The translations under genes and the position numbers were made by a program. Shown here one piece after another: positions 3,131 through 19,338 of a stretch of DNA of 25,153 nt. Under the pieces are notes generated by a model. It worked only from the letters and a program-made list of their open reading frames with translations, was not told where the DNA came from and did no database searches. This DNA comes from a virus (Duplodnaviria; Caudoviricetes). The DNA is taken from IMG/VR virus record IMGVR_UViG_3300032269_000370, positions 1 to 25,153 of that record; one strand, 5' to 3'. The stretch's first letter is position 1. Each line of letters starts with the position of its first letter.

Positions 3131-3502
3131 TTATTCGCTCCAAGGCAGCGGCTCATTGGCATCACTGTTGATTGGATTATCTGATTGACCCAGTATGTTT
3201 TTACCTAACCAAATCAACATAACAGCATTGCCCTGTAGAGCCAAACGCAATTGTGCTTGTCTTAGGCTTTGTTTTAAATTATTGCGTCCGCGATCCAGTT
3301 CTGGTCTAAAGTTATAAGTCAGCGTGTTTTCATCGATGTCAAACCATTCGCATATCTCGTGGTTCTTACAGCCAATCTGCGCTAATTTATAAACTTCTTC
3401 AGGTGGCACTACCACATTCTTTCTGCTGACAATGCGGCCTTCTACAATTTTTGAACCATATCTAGTTCGCTTTACTTTTTCTTTAGGTTGTTCATCACTC
3501 AA
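3131..3502 (-). CDS. terS: Terminase small subunit (HTH-type)
   Basis: Immediately upstream of terL. HTH-like VYKLAQIGCKNHEICEWFDIDENTL and C-terminal GNAVMLIWLGKNILGQSD. Start moved to TTG at 3502, which has a GGAG SD and overlaps the upstream stop. Confidence 0.8.
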   Translation of the reverse strand: MSDEQPKEKVKRTRYGSKIVEGRIVSRKNVVVPPEEVYKLAQIGCKNHEICEWFDIDENTLTYNFRPELDRGRNNLKQSLRQAQLRLALQGNAVMLIWLGKNILGQSDNPINSDANEPLPWSE

Positions 3503-5327
3503 CGGTTTTCTCCAAATTAAATGCCGCAGCAAGATTAGTATCAACAACCACTTGATCAATGCGGCTCTGCGGATTCGCGAGTTCTATAATAGTAGCGTCT
3601 TGAGTGTGCGTAAATTTATAGGCACTGTTGTTTCTTAACTTAATTATGTAAAATATCTCATCTAGCACGGTATTTGGCCTGGAATTGAAGAATTCTTTAA
3701 CAGTTGTGCTGCCTTTTTGCTGAATATATTTTGTCAGTGCGTTATTGACTTCGGCAGTGTGAGATTCTTGTTCTGTAAAACTCAAGCCTATAAAATCACT
3801 GTATAACTGAGCATCGCGTAATGCTGCTCGTGATTCTGCTGTGGGTGCTTGACCATAATGCTCATCAACCACGCGGTGTATGGCTGACTCTGCTACTCTA
3901 ATACACCATTTGTCGTGTGCTGTGGTCCAATCTCTATCCCAGGGTATAATGGTACGACAAACGTGAGCCGCTTCAAAGGCAGTATAACAGAAAGTTTCTT
4001 CAACACTGGGTATAATGGCCAACGCTGCTGAACGCATAGCATCAACTTTACTGGCACCGGTTAATGCCACGTGAATTGTGTGTTCTATGCCTTCTTCTAA
4101 AAAGCGTCGTTTAAACTTGTCAGCAGACTTTTGACTGGGTGTAATCAATATGGCAGGATGACCACTGCTCTTACAAGCGCGAATAAACACTTCGGGATTT
4201 TTGCGTGGCTCATATGGACCAATATACAATATACCACTGCGATTGCTGAAATCTGTGTCGTCTAAACACTCTAGCAATTCAGGTTGTCCCAGCGGTGGGG
4301 TCATTACTGTGATGCGATTCTCAGTGACCTGTGTGTGTTGTAAAAATTCACCCCGTGTGTATTCACTTTGGCAAATAATTCGTATTGGGCTGGTTTCTAA
4401 TAGGCTGCGTGTTAAGTCAGTTAAAAAGTTATCTGGTCCGCGTCCTATGTCCATTTCACTGTGAGTGACATAATACATATTGTCGTGTTGCCGATCTAGG
4501 CCAATACTGATCGCAGCCAACAGTGTGTCCAAACTGTTGATGATCAATACATCATAACTGTATGTGGATAACGCTCGCATTAATCCTGCTCGCAAATCCA
4601 CAGCGTCTTTTAATCGCACAATGGGACTGCGCATAGCAATGTCCGCATCTAGATTGCTTTTTACAATGTCTGAATCGGGACTGATCCAATTGGCAATGTC
4701 ATTGTATCTGTCAAACTGTGTATTGGCGACATCACTGTCATTGCTGATAATATCAACTTGAACACCACTGCGTAATCCCCATTCTAACCAGCCATTGATA
4801 TAAGTGGTGACCCCACGATTAACATAACTGTGCTTGAGAACTACCAAACCTACACGCCTAGTTATAGGCTCATCGCCTCGCGCTTTTGCCAATTCTTCTG
4901 CTGAGGTAGCATAGTTTTTACCATTTAATAATCTGTCAATTTCCAATTCGCTGAATGCGGTCATTGAGGCGGTGAGACTGAGATCATCATTCAATCTGCT
5001 CAATAACTCTCGCAATTCTGTGGTCAATAGTGGATCATCCCAAGCAGCATATTCATTGGTTTTATTATCAGCCAATCTATAGGCCTGTGCTTGCTCCTCA
5101 GTTAATTCATTGGCAACAATAACTGGGATCTTAACCAGTTTAAGTCGTTTAGCCGCTTTGTATCTAGTATGTCCAACAATGATAACACGATTGCTATCAA
5201 CCACAATAGGCTGTTGAAAACCATATTGGCGAATAGATTCTACTACAACATCAACAGCCCGGTCATTGCGGCGTGGATTAGCAGGATAGGGCTTAATACT
5301 GGCAGTGTCGGCCATTTCGATAATCAT
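3495..5327 (-). CDS. ParB/Srx N-terminal domain fused to a GT-B (GT4-like) glycosyltransferase
   Basis: N-terminus PYPANPRRND..SIRQYGFQQPIVVD..IIVGHTRYKAA..ADNK is a phage ParB-like domain. The C-terminal half has YIGPYEPRKNPEVFIRA and IPSVEETFCYTAFEAA (the GT4 E-x7-E motif). Confidence 0.82.
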   Translation of the reverse strand: MIIEMADTASIKPYPANPRRNDRAVDVVVESIRQYGFQQPIVVDSNRVIIVGHTRYKAAKRLKLVKIPVIVANELTEEQAQAYRLADNKTNEYAAWDDPLLTTELRELLSRLNDDLSLTASMTAFSELEIDRLLNGKNYATSAEELAKARGDEPITRRVGLVVLKHSYVNRGVTTYINGWLEWGLRSGVQVDIISNDSDVANTQFDRYNDIANWISPDSDIVKSNLDADIAMRSPIVRLKDAVDLRAGLMRALSTYSYDVLIINSLDTLLAAISIGLDRQHDNMYYVTHSEMDIGRGPDNFLTDLTRSLLETSPIRIICQSEYTRGEFLQHTQVTENRITVMTPPLGQPELLECLDDTDFSNRSGILYIGPYEPRKNPEVFIRACKSSGHPAILITPSQKSADKFKRRFLEEGIEHTIHVALTGASKVDAMRSAALAIIPSVEETFCYTAFEAAHVCRTIIPWDRDWTTAHDKWCIRVAESAIHRVVDEHYGQAPTAESRAALRDAQLYSDFIGLSFTEQESHTAEVNNALTKYIQQKGSTTVKEFFNSRPNTVLDEIFYIIKLRNNSAYKFTHTQDATIIELANPQSRIDQVVVDTNLAAAFNLEKTVE

Positions 5328-5333
5328 AAATTC

Positions 5334-5365
5334 TCCTTGGACTACTATTTAAAGTAATCCAAGGA
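5334..5365 (-). promoter_or_regulatory. SD-sequestering hairpin with TAAATA in the loop
   Basis: Minus strand TCCTTGGATTACT-TTAAAT-AGTAGTCCAAGGA forms a 13-bp stem with one G-U pair. The 3' arm contains AAGGA of the SD for 3495..5327. Confidence 0.7.
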
Positions 5366-5378
5366 TTTTTATAATTTT

Positions 5379-6053
5379 TTAACAGCCTAAACCTTGTAAA
5401 GCATTAGCCAGATTTTGATAATGCCGCACTACGCTGGCCATACGCGTTTTAGCAGCATCTACTACTCGTGGATGTAGGAACTGTCCGCCAAAGCGCTCTA
5501 ACTGAACATAACCTAATGCGTGATTAGTGCCACGCTGGCCTTCAATAACTCGAAAATGTGTAAAACCCAACGCTGCCCAATATGCTGCCTTGGACCTAAT
5601 GCGACCTAATTCTAAACTAATGGCCACGCACTCTAAATGTTGCCGGGCAAAAGTATAAGCATAAGTGGCTATGCCTGCGGACCTATGCGCAGGATCAATC
5701 CAAATAAGTTCTAATGTTCTGTAATCAGTCGCGTCAGTGGGTAAAAAAGTAGAAATAAAACCTATATCTACTGTGTCCAGCGTAATAGCATAAGCCCGAC
5801 GCTGTCGATCATTGGTCAAATAATCTTCTTCATAATGATTGCGTGTCGCTGCGCCACCTGCTGCTTCATATTCATCTGCCCAACGATCTACTAATGCGGG
5901 CATCTGTAGCATACCAATGGGCCTAAACTGAACACGATCGCGTAATTGCCCAATTTGATTACAAATTGTATTTTGATGCTGTGTAATATCTGCGTAATAA
6001 CGGTTGGTCCTAGCACGCCATAATTGCTCGTCTCGTTTGCTTGCCTTGCTCAT
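5379..6053 (-). CDS. GNAT-family acetyltransferase-like protein
   Basis: GNAT motif A LELIWIDPAHRSAGIAT and downstream AAYWAALGF. AGGAG SD supplied by repeat module 1. Confidence 0.7.
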   Translation of the reverse strand: MSKASKRDEQLWRARTNRYYADITQHQNTICNQIGQLRDRVQFRPIGMLQMPALVDRWADEYEAAGGAATRNHYEEDYLTNDRQRRAYAITLDTVDIGFISTFLPTDATDYRTLELIWIDPAHRSAGIATYAYTFARQHLECVAISLELGRIRSKAAYWAALGFTHFRVIEGQRGTNHALGYVQLERFGGQFLHPRVVDAAKTRMASVVRHYQNLANALQGLGC

Positions 6054-6155
6054 CGCACACTCCTAAAATTGCGTAGCAGTATCGCTACATCAACAATTAT
6101 ACACAGGTCGCTCCTGAAGAGCAAGAACGACCCTGTGTGTTGCTTTTACGCTACA
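6054..6155 (-). repeat. Regulatory repeat module 1 (palindromic box, hairpin, sigma70 promoter, leader hairpin, SD)
   Basis: Core CTACATCAACAATTATACACAG at 6085-6106; -10 TATAAT 6096-6101; -35 TTGCTC 6119-6124 (17-nt spacer); box 6138-6155. Confidence 0.92.
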
Positions 6156-6793: not shown

Positions 6794-6905
6794 AATATAC
6801 TCCAGTGTGTGTTAAAAATATCAGTAGCAACTCGCTACATCAACAATTATACACAGGTCGCCCCTGTAGAGCAAGAACGACCTCCTGTGTTGTTTTTACG
6901 CAACA
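6794..6905 (-). repeat. Regulatory repeat module 2
   Basis: Core 6835-6856; -10 6846-6851; -35 TTGCTC 6869-6874; box TGTTG-N8-CAACA 6888-6905. Confidence 0.92.
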
Positions 6906-7072
6906 ATGCGGCAAGTGCGTTGAACTGTGCTGCCCGGGCAAGTGTGATCACTACACTGAATGACTGACCTAACCCCAGTCTCGTAATCCACAGTATTGGT
7001 TGTGGTGGTTGTGACATTACAACCATCATCGGCGCAGCCTGCCAATAGGCATAGAATAAACAGGATTCTCAC
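6896..7072 (-). CDS. Small Cys-rich lipoprotein (58 aa)
   Basis: Not in the ORF track. MRILFILCLLAGCADDGCNVTTTTTNTVDYETGVRSVIQCSDHTCPGSTVQRTCRIVA*. LAGC lipobox, GTGA overlap with the upstream stop, AGGA SD, and the stop falls in the module-2 box as for the other cassette genes. Confidence 0.8.
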   Translation of the reverse strand: MRILFILCLLAGCADDGCNVTTTTTNTVDYETGVRSVIQCSDHTCPGSTVQRTCRIVA

Positions 7073-7299
7073 GCTGTGTCCTTTGAGATAAAATAGAATT
7101 CATTGGGCTTGCGATAGCGATTTACATAAAAGTGTCGTTGGCTAAATCCAGTGGATGCTGTATATTCGGGCACTGAATTATAAGGACCTTGTGGTGTCAT
7201 AATGGCCTGTGCTACTCTACCCCCAGTGCGTAGTTCGCCCTTTTTAAGTCGGCTCATTAATGCCCGGGACTCGGCAGTGTGCTTCGTACCGGGCCGCAT
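7069..7299 (-). CDS. Stand-alone NUMOD3-type DNA-binding protein
   Basis: GTKHTAESRALMSRLKKG matches the NUMOD3 pattern, followed by a TPxGxYxSxxE HTH-like segment. No nuclease domain. Confidence 0.65.
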   Translation of the reverse strand: MRPGTKHTAESRALMSRLKKGELRTGGRVAQAIMTPQGPYNSVPEYTASTGFSQRHFYVNRYRKPNEFYFISKDTA

Positions 7300-7547
7300 T
7301 ATGCTGTCACCTCTTCAATAGTGTATTCAACTTCATCCATACCACCATCACTGTCATCGTCGTCCGACTGCCAATCCCAATCAATGTCAGTGTCTTGATC
7401 GCAAACCCATTCAGCAAGCCCATCATATTCTGAATGCTGTCCTGATTCGATTTGTTGATACAGTTCTGGATCAATGTCAATTGTGGCCTCAAATACACTT
7501 CTGCGATAGATAGTGTAATAACCATTTTTAATAACTGTAATTTTCAT
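7299..7547 (-). CDS. Hypothetical acidic protein (82 aa)
   Basis: Start moved to ATG at 7547 (GGAGG SD, ATGA overlap). TAATG coupling to the next gene. Confidence 0.75.
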   Translation of the reverse strand: MKITVIKNGYYTIYRRSVFEATIDIDPELYQQIESGQHSEYDGLAEWVCDQDTDIDWDWQSDDDDSDGGMDEVEYTIEEVTA

Positions 7548-7675
7548 TCTGCGGCCTCCAACCATTGCTGTTCTTCGTTGGTTAAACTGCGAGTTTGTTC
7601 TGCTTCACGCAACTCAGCAATTAGATCTTCAGTTTGTTCTTGTGTCCAGGAACCTGTATGCCAATTGGGTTTCAT
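7544..7675 (-). CDS. Hypothetical micro-protein (43 aa)
   Basis: Not in the track. MKPNWHTGSWTQEQTEDLIAELREAEQTRSLTNEEQQWLEAAE*. GGAGG SD and ATGA overlaps at both ends. Confidence 0.75.
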   Translation of the reverse strand: MKPNWHTGSWTQEQTEDLIAELREAEQTRSLTNEEQQWLEAAE

Positions 7676-7839
7676 TCTGCGGCCTCCTGTAGTAGTTCAG
7701 TAAAAGCGGTTTCGATATGTGTTCGAACTGTATCGTATTCTGGATATCTGCGTAAGAGTCGAGCACACTCACGCAAATACTTTTGAACCTTTGACAGTTC
7801 TGCTGTCTTTAACAGCATACGATGTTCTTCGTTTGTCAT
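7672..7839 (-). CDS. Hypothetical micro-protein (55 aa)
   Basis: Not in the track. MTNEEHRMLLKTAELSKVQKYLRECARLLRRYPEYDTVRTHIETAFTELLQEAAE*. AGGAG SD and ATGA overlaps at both ends. Confidence 0.75.
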   Translation of the reverse strand: MTNEEHRMLLKTAELSKVQKYLRECARLLRRYPEYDTVRTHIETAFTELLQEAAE

Positions 7840-8027
7840 TCTGCGCACTCCTGTTTCTGTTGTGAATCGGGCCTATCTATACTGTGTCGATCAAGCGTCA
7901 ATTGTCTAGCCAAAAACCTAACTGGCATATTTGACCAAATTGACTGTTGCTGTGCTGTTGGCTCAATGCCACGCAGTCGTAAAAACTCACAATGAGCCTG
8001 TATTATGTTATGTCTGCTGTATCTCAT
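7836..8027 (-). CDS. Hypothetical protein (63 aa)
   Basis: First gene after module 3, with a TAAGGAG SD. Confidence 0.75.
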   Translation of the reverse strand: MRYSRHNIIQAHCEFLRLRGIEPTAQQQSIWSNMPVRFLARQLTLDRHSIDRPDSQQKQECAE

Positions 8028-8134
8028 AGCACTCTCCTTAGTTAAAAATGTGTAGCAGTATCGCTACATCAACAATTATACACAGGCCGCTCTCAAAAAG
8101 CAAGAACAGCCTGCTGTGTTGTTAATCTACAACA
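8028..8134 (-). repeat. Regulatory repeat module 3
   Basis: Core 8064-8085; -10 8075-8080; -35 TTGCTT 8098-8103; box 8117-8134. Confidence 0.92.
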
Positions 8135-8307
8135 ACATCGTTTAGACTCAAAAACGCTTTGAGATCGCACAGTTCGTCCTCGTCAATACTCCACAGGTCG
8201 TCTGTGTCGTAAGCGAACCTACAGGCCTGATCCAGCGACCACTCACGATCATAGCCTACCCTGCGCAAACGGTCAAACTCTCGACGCGCCAAATCTTCGA
8301 TATCCAT
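8122..8307 (-). CDS. Hypothetical protein (61 aa)
   Basis: Start moved to ATG at 8307 (MDIEDLARR), after the TAAGGAG SD. The track start lies inside the repeat. Confidence 0.75.
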   Translation of the reverse strand: MDIEDLARREFDRLRRVGYDREWSLDQACRFAYDTDDLWSIDEDELCDLKAFLSLNDVVVD

Positions 8308-8413
8308 CGCACTCTCCTTAGTTAAAAATCTGTAGCAATTCACTACATCAACAATTATACACAGGTCTGCTGCCTAGAGCAAGCAGAACTGTGTGTGTTG
8401 TTTTTATGCTACT
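8308..8413 (-). repeat. Regulatory repeat module 4
   Basis: Core 8343-8364; -10 8354-8359; -35 TTGCTC 8377-8382; box 8396-8413. Confidence 0.92.
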
Positions 8414-8609
8414 GTAGCGTAATGACCTTACACGCAGCCTCAATTACTGCTACGCGAGCCGCAAAAACATCTTCAGGCAAATCAGTAAAAATGAAATTGT
8501 CTGGATCGTTGGGATCTTGATACATAAGACCCTGTTCGACAAAGGCCGCTAGCATACGATCGCAGGCCTCTTGTATTTCCCGCTTCTGCTGTTTTTTAGA
8601 TTTACGCAC
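8409..8609 (-). CDS. Hypothetical protein (66 aa)
   Basis: Start moved to GTG at 8609 (MRKSKKQQK), after the TAAGGAG SD. Confidence 0.72.
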   Translation of the reverse strand: MRKSKKQQKREIQEACDRMLAAFVEQGLMYQDPNDPDNFIFTDLPEDVFAARVAVIEAACKVITLQ

Positions 8610-8715
8610 AACACTCTCCTTAGTTAAAAATCTGTAGCAATTCACTACATCAACAATTATACACAGTTCAAGTCGTTTGAGCAACCTGAACTGTGTGTGT
8701 TGCTTTTACGCTACA
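8610..8715 (-). repeat. Regulatory repeat module 5
   Basis: Core 8645-8666; -10 8656-8661; -35 TTGCTC 8679-8684; box 8698-8715. Confidence 0.92.
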
Positions 8716-9005
8716 ACGCTGAACTTGTGTGCTGTGGCCAACAAGCAATCGCGAATGGCCTCATCATCGCCAGCAAAATCGATGTCCAGCAAATAACGAG
8801 CAGCCTCATAGCGTGTCATCGCTCGAGGCAAGCCGATAATGTCGATCTTTGCGTTGCCCCACTTGGCCAAATGCGCAGTGCGACCTGTGCTGTTGCTAAC
8901 ACGAAATCTCCAACGATACTGTGGAATAGGCAGTGTGCCCACCTGAGTCTCGCCAACGAACTGCTGGCTCACCCCAGCGTAAATGTAAGTGTCTTCTCGA
9001 CGCAT
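8706..9005 (-). CDS. Hypothetical phage protein (99 aa)
   Basis: AGGAG SD and bounded by modules 6 and 5. Confidence 0.78.
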   Translation of the reverse strand: MRREDTYIYAGVSQQFVGETQVGTLPIPQYRWRFRVSNSTGRTAHLAKWGNAKIDIIGLPRAMTRYEAARYLLDIDFAGDDEAIRDCLLATAHKFSVVA

Positions 9006-9117
9006 TTCAAACTCCTATAGTTAAAAAATGTAGTGCTCTCTATTCACTACATCAACAATTATACACAGTTCAGGCTGTTTGAGCAACCTGAACTGTGTGT
9101 GTTGTTTTTACGCAACA
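9006..9117 (-). repeat. Regulatory repeat module 6
   Basis: Core 9047-9068; -10 9058-9063; -35 TTGCTC 9081-9086; perfect 12-bp stem ACACAGTTCAGG/CCTGAACTGTGT; box 9100-9117. Confidence 0.92.
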
Positions 9118-9320
9118 GTGGCAAATTTATACATTAAACTGCTAATGGCCATAACAGTGGCCTCTGCCTTGTGCTGTTCTGGAAAATTATAAGTTGTATA
9201 AAGACTGTTTATAAAATGTTCAGTGTGGTCATCGCTGACATATCCCAATGTCTCGAACCACCACGCTGCTGAATCGTAAAGTTGATCAGCAATACTATCT
9301 ACTGTTAAATCTGCGCTCAT
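9108..9320 (-). CDS. Hypothetical protein (70 aa)
   Basis: AGGAG SD and bounded by modules 7 and 6. Confidence 0.75.
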   Translation of the reverse strand: MSADLTVDSIADQLYDSAAWWFETLGYVSDDHTEHFINSLYTTYNFPEQHKAEATVMAISSLMYKFATVA

Positions 9321-9434
9321 CTCAATAACTCCTATAGTTAAAAAATGTAGTGCTCTCTATTCACTACATCAACAATTATACACAGGAGTCAGGATCAACG
9401 CAACCACTATTTTGTGTGTTGTATTTGAGCAACA
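9321..9434 (-). repeat. Regulatory repeat module 7 (first in transcription order, weak hairpin)
   Basis: Core 9364-9385; -10 9375-9380; -35 TTGCGT 9398-9403; box 9417-9434. Confidence 0.9.
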
Positions 9435-9450
9435 GTTGGGAGTGTGGGGT

Positions 9451-9474
9451 CGGTGTTGTATTGGCGCAACACCG
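9451..9474. promoter_or_regulatory. Extra (eighth) palindromic box upstream of the array
   Basis: CGGTGTTG-TATTGGCG-CAACACCG: the same TGTTG-N8-CAACA box with perfect 8-bp arms, 37 bp from the module-7 box. Confidence 0.7.
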
Positions 9475-9520
9475 GTGGTTATTAATGTTAAAACGGTCTT
9501 TTGTTTTTGAACGCTATTGG

Positions 9521-9718
9521 CTACGCCATTAATGCTGTATTTTTAATTGGATTTAATACAATGGTTTTAATTGCTTGGCCACCCAAATTCATCGTGGCCC
9601 CAAGTTGATAGTAATGTGTTTCAGCCATTGCCCTATCGCTGTAATAAAAGTCTGCTGTGCGATTGCCAGTCAGTGTAATTGCCAAGTGATATTGGTCGGT
9701 ATTATTGTTTTTTCGCAT
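9521..9718 (-). CDS. Hypothetical protein (65 aa)
   Basis: Start moved to ATG at 9718 (MRKNNNTDQ), which has a GGAG SD and avoids a long overlap with the upstream gene. Confidence 0.65.
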   Translation of the reverse strand: MRKNNNTDQYHLAITLTGNRTADFYYSDRAMAETHYYQLGATMNLGGQAIKTIVLNPIKNTALMA

Positions 9719-10163
9719 TGATCTTTCTCCAAGAATTAAAACGTTGATCAGGTGGTAGTGTAATGGCCAATTTAATAGGCCAGCCTCTGTGTATGCGCCC
9801 CAGCACTGTAGCATAGGATATGCCCGAAGCCTCACTCCATTCTGTTATCATTTTGGTTCGCTTTTGGTATGTCTTTTTAATTGTGCTATCAAAAGTTCTA
9901 GCCAATTCTCTGTGTGTGCGCCATTCCAAATTGTCTGCTATCCAACCTTCGCTTCGATCTCGCCTACATAACATATGTCGCAGTGTTGGTGGTGTTCCAC
10001 AATTGGCCAGCACATAAGTTTCAAAACTTCTATATGTGGGCCATTCCAGTGGTAATTGATGTGCCCAGGCATAATCTCTGTGACCGGGTCGTTGCCTTAT
10101 ATCGCGTATGGTGCGATAAGCATTCCAGATTTTTTTAATATTAGGATTGGCTAGATTTGGCAT
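9702..10163 (-). CDS. HNH-endonuclease-like protein, probably catalytically degenerate, with a C-terminal HTH
   Basis: WPTYRSF..CGTPP..LCRRDRSEGWIADNLEWRT follows the phage HNH pattern (dRidn.gY.p.NcrWat). The C-terminus is ITEWSEASGISYATVLGRIHRGW. Start at 10163 is uncertain. Confidence 0.65.
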   Translation of the reverse strand: MPNLANPNIKKIWNAYRTIRDIRQRPGHRDYAWAHQLPLEWPTYRSFETYVLANCGTPPTLRHMLCRRDRSEGWIADNLEWRTHRELARTFDSTIKKTYQKRTKMITEWSEASGISYATVLGRIHRGWPIKLAITLPPDQRFNSWRKINAKKQ

Positions 10164-10371
10164 CTGGGTAATATCCTGAACGAGCCATTCGAGCATATAA
10201 TTGCTGTTTGAAACTGGGTTGTTCTCCGCCCTCACTGACATTACGTCGAGCCATATCCACAATAGCGTGTTGTCCTGAATCTAAACTCATCATTGTGATT
10301 AGATCCTGTTGTGTGGTACGATGCTCGCGTATTCTACGACCTAAATTTAATAATTCCACTGGGTTAAACAT
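10141..10371 (-). CDS. Hypothetical protein (76 aa)
   Basis: ATG with an AGGAG SD, and ATAAATA at 10392-10398 just upstream. Confidence 0.7.
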   Translation of the reverse strand: MFNPVELLNLGRRIREHRTTQQDLITMMSLDSGQHAIVDMARRNVSEGGEQPSFKQQLYARMARSGYYPDAKSSQS

Positions 10372-10399: not shown

Positions 10400-10626
10400 T
10401 GATTTACTACAAGTGCTTAAATTTTAGTTGTGTGTATGTGTGTATAAAACTGCTGTATGTATAGCGAATTTCTACTAGCACTATATTTTTACTTTTACTA
10501 TATATTATATAATATTAATATTATTATTAATAATAAACATAATATACATAATATATATTGTAGTAGCATTAAACGCACATTTTGATGTGTATGACCATTT
10601 TTTTAGTCATACACATCACATACACT
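10400..10626. other. Putative replication origin
   Basis: Non-coding region next to the helicase stop. A 39-bp A/T-only tract at 10499-10537, GTGTATG repeats in both orientations, and a perfect 13-bp inverted repeat at 10583-10595/10606-10618. Confidence 0.6.
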
Positions 10627-13302: not shown

Positions 13303-14346
13303 TTAATATCTCCCTGGAAAAATTCCCACTTGTTGTGGATAACTGGTGTTATTGACAGGTGAATTTAATAAAGTATAGGTGGCAGTTCCCGTGAATCTAT
13401 AATAGATACTAGGATTCAAATACACTCCATATACTACTAAATCACCAGTTCCACTGATTTTTAACCCAGTGACATTATTGGCTGGTTGTTGAGCAGGAGT
13501 GGCAATTTTGGTAAATGTGTTTCCTGAACGATTATAAGCATAAAATCTTGGAACTACACTGGTTCCAATTAGCAATCTTCCTCCATCTGGACTCCAATCA
13601 ATATTAAAAACGGCCCCAGTAGGCAGCGTAGCAGGATTAGACAATTTGGTAAATGTATCACCTGATCTATTGTAAATGGTTATGTATGGACTGGTTGGTC
13701 CACCGTGTGCTATACTGCTGCCATCTTGATTCCAGGCCAGCGTATAACCTCCTCCAGTAGGCAATCCACCAACGAAACTGCTGGTGCTGATCAAACTGAA
13801 TGTATCAGTTCCAGTCCTATTGAATACCACAAGGTTAATACCACCTGCTTGTCTTATGGCAAATGCCACACTTTTACCATCTGGACTCCACGCAGGAACT
13901 GGTTCGCTGCTGACAGTAAAAACACCACTGCTGGTCCAAGGAGTGCTGGTTGTTAGAGTAAAAGTATCGCCTGAACGATTTAATAAAAATACATAAGGGG
14001 CAGCAATGCTGCCTACCATAAGACTATTACCATCTGGACTCCAATCCATTCTGCCCACAGAAGGAATAACTGGAGTTCCTAAAATCCGTGTAAAATTGGT
14101 TCCAGTTCTATTATAGATATAAACACCTGGACTTAAACTTCCAGGCACAGCCATACTATTTCCGCTATTATTCCAAAGCCCGCTACTAACACTACCACTG
14201 GCCTGAACCGTAGTAGTGTTAATAAATTTAATATAATCGCCTTGAACCTCATACCAGCGAACTATATTGGTTGGTGATGTGCTGCCACCCAATGTTATGC
14301 TATAAACAGGTGGAGGTGTCGCAATAGCGTGGCTAATAAATGGCAT
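13303..14346 (-). CDS. WD40/TolB-like beta-propeller protein (possible receptor-binding protein)
   Basis: Repeated blades WSPDG/WNQDG ... YNRSGDTFTKL at ~45-50 aa spacing. Translationally coupled to the collagen gene. Confidence 0.8.
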   Translation of the reverse strand: MPFISHAIATPPPVYSITLGGSTSPTNIVRWYEVQGDYIKFINTTTVQASGSVSSGLWNNSGNSMAVPGSLSPGVYIYNRTGTNFTRILGTPVIPSVGRMDWSPDGNSLMVGSIAAPYVFLLNRSGDTFTLTTSTPWTSSGVFTVSSEPVPAWSPDGKSVAFAIRQAGGINLVVFNRTGTDTFSLISTSSFVGGLPTGGGYTLAWNQDGSSIAHGGPTSPYITIYNRSGDTFTKLSNPATLPTGAVFNIDWSPDGGRLLIGTSVVPRFYAYNRSGNTFTKIATPAQQPANNVTGLKISGTGDLVVYGVYLNPSIYYRFTGTATYTLLNSPVNNTSYPQQVGIFPGRY

Positions 14347-15338
14347 TAGGCAAATCCTCTGTTGAGACTGGCATAGTAAGTAGTGCCATCATAAAATACC
14401 TGAACCAAATCTATACTGGCTGTGGTTGTGCTTAATAGTTTATTACTGCCAGCAAACTTCATAGTAGAAGATAATAGTCTGGTTCCTGTTGAATCCTGTG
14501 TCATAATCATTGTGATATTGCTGCCAGTTGTGGCATTGGCAAATGAGTTGATTGTGACATTGCCAGTCAGTGTCATTTTATGAACGGTGCCACTTGAAAC
14601 ATCTGGAGTATAAGTGCCAGCAGCCATATTACCCCAATTATAAACCGTTTCATTAAGTCCTGCGATTGTAATAGTGCCAGTGAATATACCACCAGCAAAA
14701 GCATTTCCACCTGGGCCACTTGGGCCACTTGGTCCTTGTGCCCCAGTATTACCAGCAACACCTTGAGGTCCTTGTGGTCCTTGAGAACCACTTGGTCCTT
14801 GTGGTCCCGTTTCTCCACTTGGTCCTTGTGGTCCTTGGGGACCGGTCGTGCCTTGTGCTCCACTTGGCCCTTGAGGTCCCGTTGCTCCACTTGGCCCTTG
14901 TGGTCCTTGTGCTCCACTTGGCCCTTGAGGTCCCGTTGCTCCACTTGGCCCTTGAGGTCCCGTTGCTCCACTTGGCCCACTTGGTCCTTGTGGCCCAGTT
15001 ATGCCTTGTGGTCCTTGTGCTCCACTTGGCCCTTGAGGTCCTTGGGGACCGGTCGTGCCTTGTGGTCCTTGTGCTCCAACAACACCTTGTGGTCCTTGAG
15101 GTCCTTGGGGACCGGTCGTGCCTTGTGGGCCTTGTGCTCCAACAACACCTTGTGGTCCTTGTGGTCCCCTTACGCCCTGCGGCCCCTGTGGTCCATTATT
15201 CTCAACAATGAATCCACCCGGTGTAATACCATCACCAATATATAACTTTTTTGTATCTAATGCTACAACAGGTTCTCCCACCGCAAATGTGGTTGTGGTA
15301 ATGAAACTGCTGGTTGTTCTGCGAAATTGTAGTGCCAT
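14346..15338 (-). CDS. Collagen-like tail fibre with an Mtd-N-like anchoring domain
   Basis: N-terminal [22 protein letters not shown], about 54 Gly-X-Y triplets, and a beta-rich C-terminal domain. Confidence 0.85.
14709..15194 (-). repeat. Collagen (GPQ/GPS/GAT) coding repeat
   Basis: 9-nt periodicity with near-exact 27-nt and 63-nt tandem blocks. Confidence 0.9.
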
Positions 15339-17334: not shown

Positions 17335-19338
17335 TTATGTCCAATATATTATTTCGCCAGTAGTGGGATTATAAGCCATATTATAAAATCCACTGGGTAA
17401 ACTGCCATTTACAACCTGTCTAACGGGTTTAACATAGAAACTGCTGGCGCTGGCAGAATTCAATTCAGCATTGGTGGCATTTAATACTATGGTATTGGCA
17501 AACCCATTAGTAGTTGAGGTGCTATTAGCATTGGCCTTATAACCGATTGCTATACTATAGTCCCCTTGCCCATAATCAGTAAATGCTCCAACACCTTGTG
17601 TGCCACTGCCGGCTGCTATTCTATTTCCTTGACCGGCAAAATTTCCAATGGCCACACTATTGGTGCCTTGTTTATGTTGGCCTGCTTGATTACCTATTGC
17701 TATAGAACCATTGCCCTGTAATGACACGGCTGCTTGATTGCCTACTGCTACAGAAAGATTACCTTGTAGATAGTTGCCACTGCTGGCTCCCACTGCTACT
17801 GAATTTGTCCCTTGCTGAATACTAGCGGCCCCTGCTCCAATTGCCACCCTGGCAAAGTCTTGACGCATATAATTATAAGACGCATCACTAGGAATACTTC
17901 CAACTGGGCCAAATATCATTATAATGTCTTCATTGGTATTTTCAAATCTGCTGCTTAATTGAAATGTTTGATTATCTTCTAAACATTCCCAATCTACAGC
18001 CGGATCTAATACCTGACCATTTAAAAGTAATACCCAGTCTCTAACAGGAAGTTGGGGATTACTCCTTGTGACATGATACGGGCTAATATTATATCTGCGG
18101 CCCTCTAATCCAGCGTATATAATTAAATTTGCGCCTGAGTTCCAAATTGACCAAGCACCAGCACGATTGCCTCTAACTACTGGACTCCTCGAATAACTAT
18201 CCACTATACCGGTTAAATCATAATAAAAATCAACACCATTGGCTCCACTTGGGCCCTGCGGACCTTGTGGACCTCGTGGCCCTTGTGGGCCGCCTGCCGG
18301 TCCTTGTGGGCCAACTGGACCAGTATTGCCGGTTGCTCCTTGCGGACCTTGTGGGCCTATGCCACCACCTTGTATTGCCGCAACACTAAATCGCGGCCCT
18401 ATAATACTACCGATTGATGTGCTGGTAGTAAACGAACTATTGGCAATCTTTTGTGTCACCGCATAGAATTCAAAATAATCTGTGCCATTGGCATATACTA
18501 TTTCACTTAATACTGGACTATTTGTAGCATTTGTTGAACCACTCGATGAGTAATCTTGTAATAATATTGTTTTGTATTCACTGCCATTTTTGTATAAACT
18601 TATACCATAATTGGTTCTTCCAACAGCAAGGGTATTGGTCCAATAATAACTGGAATTGATTTGATAATAACCAGCGGTAGGCACTAATCTCTGTGTAGAT
18701 GTTGAATAGAAATTATCAGTATCAAATATTTCAGTATCAATTGCCAATTTGGTGTATAGCGTTCCTGTGTTGCTAAAATACAATGTAGTAGCAGTTGATC
18801 CATACGCACTCACAGCAATAGCAGCACCAGGAACTCCAGTAGGACCTTGTGGCCCTTGTGGGCCAATGACTCCTTGTGGTCCCTGTGGCCCAGTTGGTCC
18901 AGTATCGCCCTTAATATTTTGTCCAACCAGCACATCATAATATATGGCCATAATGTTATTAGTGCCAGTAAATGGTGCTTGACTGAATACCACAGTTGAA
19001 GTAGTGGCAGTATAACTGTAATAAGGAGTTTGAGTCACACCACCCACAATAACTTCTAAAAAGTCTGGGCCCAATGGTGTGGCGCTTAATACGAAATTAG
19101 TTTGTGTGCCATTACCGCTGAACACATCCACGGTGGCTGTGCTGGCTGCTCGCACCGCAACAATACCATTGGGAATAATTTCAACAGTATTGGTTGTTTG
19201 AGTAGCAGTGACAATGGCATTGGTTTCATTAACTGTGACCGTTGTATCAGTGCTGGATACTGTGATTTGTGGGGTGCTTTGAGTAGCCGTTAGAACATAT
19301 ACGGTTTGTTCAACGGTAATTGCTGGTGCGGTAGCCAT
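17335..19338 (-). CDS. Tail fibre / adhesin-like protein
   Basis: 667 aa. Two short collagen segments flank a C1q-like domain ([11 protein letters not shown]). 16-aa QGxNSVAIG repeats resemble a YadA head. Confidence 0.8.

Follow-up and report, generated by a model that had tools for sequence, protein, structure and literature searches.

Block-wise shuffling of promoter-like stem-loop modules in a small tailed phage, with the strongest switch at a predicted -10/+1 region

Seven modules scattered among the small genes of a tailed phage carry the same 22-nt core, and several of them look like another module on one side of this core and like a different one on the other. This raises the question of whether the core is a dedicated crossover site that moves cassettes as units, a strong form of what an earlier note had suggested, or a conserved part of something else. 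The window, the whole stretch of DNA analysed here, is a tailed-phage record of 25,153 nt and 93% completeness (CheckV). It encodes portal, terminase, tape measure, a VapE-like helicase, tail genes and a ParB/glycosyltransferase fusion, all on the minus strand. The modules lie in a block of small family-less genes between an HNH-like gene (9702–10241) and a GNAT gene (5379–6053). Save for the GNAT gene and a weak NUMOD3 match, no Pfam or PHROG family was found among the cassette genes, and the cassette proteins showed no mutual similarity at E ≤ 0.1. The modules and genes, in transcription order, are:

9321–9434, minus strand: module 7, first in transcription order; box 9417–9434, -35 TTGCGT 9398–9403, core 9364–9385
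9108–9320, minus strand: cassette gene a, 70 aa, no family; C-terminus (TVA-stop) inside box 6
9006–9117, minus strand: module 6; box 9100–9117 (same as box 2), core 9047–9068, leader as module 7, hairpin type as module 5
8706–9005, minus strand: cassette gene b, 99 aa, no family; C-terminus (VVA-stop) inside box 5
8610–8715, minus strand: module 5; box 8698–8715 (same as box 1), core 8645–8666, leader as module 4, hairpin type as module 6
8409–8609, minus strand: cassette gene c, 66 aa, starting with GTG, no family; stop codon bordering box 4
8308–8413, minus strand: module 4; box 8396–8413 (same as the box of module P1 in the related fragment L244), -35 8377–8382, -10 8354–8359, core 8343–8364, leader as module 5
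8122–8307, minus strand: cassette gene d, 61 aa; 79% aa ortholog (d') in the related fragment L250
8028–8134, minus strand: module 3; box 8117–8134, core 8064–8085, leader hairpin as module 1
6896–8027, minus strand: six small coupled ORFs behind module 3, joined by stop/start overlaps; the last is a small Cys-containing lipoprotein-like ORF
6794–6905, minus strand: module 2; box 6888–6905, core 6835–6856, leader hairpin as module P1 of L244
6146–6793, minus strand: cassette gene e, 215 aa, no family; C-terminus (TVA-stop) inside box 1
6054–6155, minus strand: module 1; box 6138–6155, core 6085–6106, leader and SD of the GNAT-family gene (5379–6053)

Read in gene direction, each module opens with an 18-nt dyad box (TGTTGY-N6-RCAACA), followed by 13 nt, a TTG hexamer in the -35 position, 17 nt and TATAAT. 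Six nucleotides further on come a short hairpin starting with TGTAG, a T tract, GGAG and a start codon, the last two present in all seven modules. Both spacings are fixed in 7/7 modules. All seven contain TTGC(T/G)N-17-TATAAT, the -35 matching the consensus at three of six letters only, and the nine modules found in related fragments invariably have the 17-nt spacer and a -35 of the form TTGAC[ACG]. On this reading of their letters the modules are predicted sigma70 early-promoter and stem-loop cassettes. Because a module reads as box, -35, 17 nt, TATAAT, leader hairpin, SD and start, the core is the -10/+1 region of the predicted promoter: it begins 5 nt ahead of the -10 hexamer, within the spacer, and extends through this hexamer and the discriminator into the leader stem.

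A long hairpin of 13–16 bp, with the -35 TTG inside it and closed by the same last five spacer nucleotides, folds in six of the seven modules at -19 to -24 kcal/mol. In module 7, which has a leader and SD, it is weak (-5.6 kcal/mol). Each module as a whole is an imperfect inverted repeat. The three stem differences between modules 5 and 6 all keep pairing via G-U on the transcribed strand, and such structure-keeping changes suggest selection on RNA. The hairpin may attenuate transcripts arriving from upstream; since no clean U tract follows it, we only infer termination. The upstream gene stops in or at the edge of the box in six of seven modules, and four of these genes end in V-A-stop. Three sub-threshold Rfam matches to Entero_CRE were taken as chance hairpin matches.

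The core is present in seven exact copies (at 6085, 6835, 8064, 8343, 8645, 9047 and 9364), and no further copy with up to four mismatches was found on either strand of the whole window. The identities listed in the earlier note were reproduced. Modules 4 and 5 are identical over 55 nt from the SD through the core (8310–8364 = 8612–8666), as are modules 6 and 7 over 59 nt (9010–9068 = 9327–9385), and both runs end where the core meets the hairpin side. Between modules 5 and 6, three of 31 hairpin positions differ and, a detail left uncounted before, two of 18 box positions; modules 1 and 2 have a common hairpin type (0.84) and separate leaders. The proposal that module 5 joins the leader of module 4 to the hairpin of module 6 fits, but is not unique, as a module 6 composed of the hairpin of 5 and the leader of 7 fits equally. 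Specifically, module 5 agrees with module 4 at 33/33 positions on one side and with module 6 at 28/31 on the other, and modules 4 and 6 differ on both sides. A crossover of the latter two would fall within the following interval:

8640–8666, no strand assigned: candidate crossover interval (module 4 with module 6, giving module 5); 27 nt, core plus 5 nt of leader

The exact runs shared by modules 4 and 6 and by modules 5 and 7 are both 27 nt long. As any homologous crossover of modules 4 and 6 would map to their 27-nt identical run, a position there does not demonstrate site specificity. Simple duplication was rejected as an explanation: it fits modules 7-6-5 (leader 6 = 7, hairpin 5 ~ 6) but fails for 5-4-3, and genes a and b are not paralogs.

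Half-modules were compared by exhaustive parsimony over all 945 seven-taxon trees, with the cut position scanned. The hairpin half groups modules 5 and 6, and the leader half groups 4 with 5 and 6 with 7. With gaps coded as a fifth state, the core was the best single cut, at 7 extra steps and P 0.0005; with gaps treated as missing, cuts at or just after the core required 7–10 extra steps in three leader alignments (scan-corrected P 0.001–0.003), and removal of one hairpin arm gave P 0.003–0.011, all of these P values being optimistic because stem and indel sites are not independent. The check suggested earlier, incongruent half-module trees with a breakpoint at the core, thus turned out positive for this window. 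In the window alone, a second cut between box and hairpin (P 0.07–0.085) and a third within the leader (P 0.19–0.38) were not significant. The window modules are recombinant patchworks of one another, and the data support the core as the place of the strongest switch.

Four relatives were available for comparison (L250, L242, L244 and L239), all fragments and with nine modules in total; they came from a leader-hairpin pattern search that returned 22 mostly unrelated stretches. L250 is a close one (terminase 91%, portal 92%). At the same slot, L250 reads N2-d'-N3 versus m7-a-m6-b-m5-c-m4-d-m3 in the window, and three window cassettes are missing from it there. Genes a and c were not found in any of the four relatives; gene b has a 35% homolog at a different slot in L250. 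In L244 and L242 the slot holds other genes behind modules of like anatomy. As the slot content differs between the window, L250, L244 and L242, module-bounded genes were gained, lost or replaced. Furthermore, the window gene at 7672–7839 runs straight into the next gene; its L250 ortholog (81%) has its end inside the box of an additional, complete module.

Gene d and its ortholog d' (146/190 nt identical) allow the blocks to be followed singly. Downstream of both, the box (18/18) and the next leader hairpin (13/14) are conserved, but the hairpin (18/38, against a shuffled baseline of 0.43 ± 0.05) and the core (14/22) are not, and the leaders upstream of d and d' are of differing types. The best explanation is that a gene carries along only the box that encodes its last codons. 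When all 16 modules were compared, nearest neighbours changed block by block. The boxes of modules 1 and 5, 2 and 6, 4 and P1, and 3 and N3 are the same; the leader hairpins pair 1 with 3, 2 with P1 and N2 with N3, and the -10 region of N4 resembles that of P1. Among the 120 module pairs, which are not independent events, sharp contrasts were counted at the box/hairpin border (10) and at the leader hairpin/SD border (8).

These comparisons bear on the mobile unit of the earlier note, a fixed core-leader-gene-box-hairpin cassette, which was not supported. The identical leaders of modules 4/5 and 6/7 head unrelated genes, so joining also occurs at the SD/start; the SD region of module 3 is 0.95 like that of modules 4 and 5. 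Between d and d' the box stays as hairpin, core and leader change, and within the window the boxes sort as 1 = 5 and 2 = 6, the hairpins as 1 ~ 2 and 5 ~ 6 (P 0.07–0.085 on its own). Switches also lie at the box/hairpin border, inside the leader and at the SD/start. The claim of crossovers in or next to the core stands for the position of the strongest window switch, but not for a special status of the core: the 22-mer occurs in 0/9 modules of the four relatives, which differ from it at 3–9 of 22 positions, the nearest (3 mismatches) being the module in front of d'. The core was likely homogenised in the lineage of the window and behaves as cargo. The simplest reading is that one -10/+1 variant spread to all seven window copies, the direction of change being presumed.

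In viral contigs, neither the exact 22-mer nor a CAACACA-gap-core pattern had a match. None of 25 matches to a 17-mer had module anatomy. A 19-mer gave seven matches in metagenome contigs. One of them, L003, is a related promoter: core and leader are present, as is a gene homologous to the lipoprotein-like one, but box and hairpin are absent. Helicase-based locus searches returned none and then three distant loci, with no arrays, and helicase matches in annotated phages reached 25–29% only. At least 80 loci were obtained by a terminase search of 10/64 collection parts, with two box-promoters in one of them (L037). In other phages with the same promoter type, 6/64 within-locus pairs shared an identical run of ≥18 nt; of these runs, five begin 0–6 nt ahead of the -10 and the sixth at the -35. 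They fit a real bias for the -10 region and, like the two non-significant window cuts, weigh against the multi-site reading proposed below. Such a bias would follow from the -10 being the anchor that is conserved best. It may also reflect fast spacer divergence, since in two between-genome pairs the flanks are alike (0.82–0.97) but the 17-nt spacer they enclose is not (0.29). Between genomes, a like leader with an unlike upstream part was found in eight pairs and the reverse in none.

Taken as predicted sigma70 early-promoter/stem-loop cassettes, the modules probably became mosaic through homologous recombination and gene conversion between the repeats. The patchwork would likely stem from ordinary homologous recombination at several shared stretches, not from one dedicated site. 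Exchange would be resolved wherever two copies have a conserved block in common, at least five blocks being exchangeable (box; hairpin with -35 and spacer; -10/+1; leader hairpin; SD). No phage integrase, resolvase, ERF, RecT or Rad52 was found in the window record (93% complete) or the four related fragments (PF00589, PF00239, PF04404, PF03837 and PF04098); the PF00589 profile matched 0/5 of these records, four of them fragments, and 14/14 positive controls. As no recombinase was recognisable, the enzyme may be a host RecA-type activity or an unrecognised annealing activity. A -10/+1 variant of the type in front of gene d would have swept through all seven copies, leaving the core as the longest common stretch and the likeliest crossover zone today.

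Alternatively, no exchange took place across the core, and hairpin and spacer mutated fast under a pairing constraint beside locally duplicated, selected leaders. Spacer-only divergence between alike flanks (L193/L143 and L124/L182), stem changes that preserve structure and positive Mantel correlations of the hairpin with leader or SD blocks (r 0.30–0.44) would be accounted for in this way. We nevertheless consider it unlikely, since one tree cannot yield a module 5 that agrees with module 4 on its leader side and with module 6 on its hairpin side, identical leaders occur with unrelated genes, and relatives differ by whole cassettes; a contig of sequencing run X2 with four module-1 letters in the hairpin of module 2 (depth about 4) points weakly in the same direction. 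Site-specific recombination, with the core as dedicated crossover site of an integron-like core-leader-gene-box-hairpin cassette, is very unlikely. Integron attC arrays are tandem single-gene units with imperfect inverted repeats between them, and their core sites follow the consensus RYYYAAC ... GTTRRRY. The window is likewise a tandem array of single-gene units separated by imperfect inverted repeats, its core is invariant in 7/7 copies, and both long identity runs end at the core edge, where the best cut lies. Against this, the attC consensus was found in 0/7 modules on both strands, integrases and resolvases had no match in the records named above (a cognate recombinase could be a host enzyme or have an unrecognised fold), and each window unit has its own predicted promoter. 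Moreover, the 22-mer is missing from the relatives' modules, the block replaced between the orthologous modules m3 and N3 includes the core, and the letters of the core can all be assigned to the hairpin base, the -10, the discriminator or the beginning of the leader stem.

An assembly chimera, with co-occurring strains wrongly connected at repeats exceeding the k-mer length, seems highly improbable. In run X1, which also contains a related phage, contigs do end at the 55- and 59-nt repeats, and no listed piece spans the array. However, the 22-nt core alone is shorter than a 31-mer, and X1 pieces at 8335–8641 and 9356–9608 run from the hairpin through the core and 8 nt into the leader of modules 4 and 7 without a differing letter. 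Additionally, a contig of run X2 from the same study (8839–9088) spans gene b, leader 6 and the core and includes 20 nt of hairpin 6. Possibly X1 is the source run of the window, and it is then not independent; the listed pieces of the two runs cover the junctions of modules 4, 6 and 7, not 5. Most contig joints proved to be the window's own contigs matched to paralogous modules and were discarded, and two variant hairpins in X1 with the same letters as N2 and N3 of L250 were counted once. Contig depth was 26–37 over the cassettes and 20–24 over the flanks, which is no measure of copy number. The module 2 variant of the low-depth X2 contig (6862–6885) is possibly an ancestral or converted state.

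Homologous exchange between promoter-bearing repeats has a precedent in the PeSL (promoter-early stem-loop) cassettes of T4-type phages (PMC2839356, PMC4122927), which appear to be the closest known system. PeSL crossovers were mapped experimentally to several positions, namely from SD to -10, in the loop, and from the stem-loop to an AT-rich region (PMC2839356), and promoter, terminator and mini-circle activities have been demonstrated (PMC2839356, PMC4122927). PeSLs begin at the stop codon of the upstream gene and end at the SD and start of the next, with a sigma70-like -35/N17/-10 and a stem-loop, possibly overlapping the -35, in between. They cluster before small orphan genes, mark indels between close relatives, and are chimeric with crossovers at more than one position. 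The window modules correspondingly show the -35/17 nt/-10 arrangement, a stem-loop at the promoter, the stop-to-start span and gene turnover at the elements. In contrast, the window phage is not a T4-like myovirus; it is small (25-kb record, 93% complete) and encodes a tape measure, terminase, portal and VapE-like helicase. Its modules additionally have a dyad box encoding the last codons of the upstream gene, a second hairpin where the transcript is predicted to begin, and a -10/+1 region homogenised over 22 nt. The dyad occupies the place of the PeSL AT-rich region, only the centre of the box being AT-rich. Promoter and terminator roles of the window modules are predictions from their letters. 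As they lie in a small non-T4 phage and add the box and a leader hairpin, we call them PeSL-like rather than file them as PeSLs.

Two further systems resemble the modules in part. Phage mosaicism has been ascribed to general recombination between conserved sequences of about 50 bp that mark gene borders, leading to insertions and deletions (PMC3029335). The window likewise has a shared stretch at gene borders, which differs from such short boundary sequences in being a multi-part regulatory unit with shuffled blocks. The SAS/ESAS elements of Cluster K mycobacteriophages precede non-structural genes and combine a start-associated repeat with an inverted one; in ESAS the inverted repeats measure 17 bp, their spacer varies, and they stay with a gene family across genomes (PMC3203893). 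The general arrangement is common to both. In contrast to ESAS, the window dyad is 6-6-6 and the window leader does not stay with the gene. The patchwork promoter-like units thus resemble a known phage way of shuffling accessory genes, and PeSL-type shuffling would extend to a small non-T4 phage lineage. They also form an unusually clear natural data set, in which promoter-cassette blocks can be traced singly across relatives, and they expose a trap: an invariant core at an apparent switch point can reflect recent concerted evolution of a -10 region and not a recombination site.

The dyad box is the least explained part of the module and is widespread upstream of phage promoters. A search for the box with TTG-N20-TATAAT fetched 120 stretches, with an estimated 620 in the viral collection (13/64 parts scanned, run with the forward pattern only). 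Among 116 distinct viral matches, TTGAC occurred in 105 and a Y at position 6 and an R at position 13 in all 116, none of which the pattern required; of 82 cellular matches, obtained with a pattern that resembles this one without being the same, 53 had Y6 and 45 had R13. The 83 box-promoter matches in cellular genomes were scattered across many taxa, did not show the Y/R signature and point to no single host. Positions 6 and 13 do not covary (complementary in 72/116, about 74 expected if independent), and in two phages (L123 and L222) a single box lies between two divergent promoters; both observations favour a DNA operator over an RNA stem. In other phages the distance from box to -35 is most often 16 nt, within a range of 11–31 nt. 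Genes end in the box in 18/86 elements and in the 18 nt before it in 23/86. With so few genes ending in the box elsewhere, the stop-codon overlap is a trait of the lineage and not of the motif.

We lean towards the box being an undescribed operator common to hundreds of environmental phages, small and large, and as such a testable lead to a regulator of phage early genes. A literature search, covering mainly openly available article text, showed no description of the box. A likeness of the box to HexR sites was not confirmed by that search; it may also resemble TGT-N12-ACA activator sites. In a more far-reaching and unlikely reading, the operator's binding protein would both control early promoters and pair copies for exchange. 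Genes would then be captured at the box, which encodes their last codons (often V-A-stop), and traded between phages of one host without a recombinase. The operator part alone is likelier than this full reading, given the invariance of Y6 and R13, their lack of covariation and the divergent promoters.

Several minor observations concern the genes. Weak homologs of gene b (34–40%, E 1e-4 to 1e-6) occur near box-promoters in L139, L142, L149, L160, L163, L187, L207 and L217, directly behind the box-promoter in L149, L139, L207 and L217. The Cys-containing lipoprotein-like ORF (6896–7072) closes the early operon in several related phages, with counterparts at L003:861–1034, L039:2934–3104 and L250:3503–3676. 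A second type of joint, without a promoter, connects small genes: GGAGGCCGCAGAATGA, an SD with overlapping stop and start at genes ending in EAAE, was found at 7544–7559 and 7672–7687 in the window and at L242:2833, L244:4129 and L003:432. A 43-aa gene, 93% identical between L250 and L244, lies behind such a stop/start joint in differing contexts.

Elsewhere in the record, TAAATA stands a short distance upstream of gene starts at 5351, 10397, 12382 and 19895 (minus strand). We take this motif to recall T4-type late promoters; it was counted five times on the minus strand and twice on the plus strand, and no late sigma factor is annotated. The 610-aa fusion of ParB-N and a glycosyltransferase-like part (3495–5327) lies immediately before the small terminase and is absent at the corresponding place in L250, L242 and L244. 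The tail-fibre genes at 14346–15338 and 17335–19338 contain collagen-like repeats and are ordinary. The helicase gene is closely followed by an AT-rich tract flanked by inverted repeats (10430–10600). This tract, also present in two distant relatives (L008:4350–4560 and L009:9050–9250), is possibly a replication origin.
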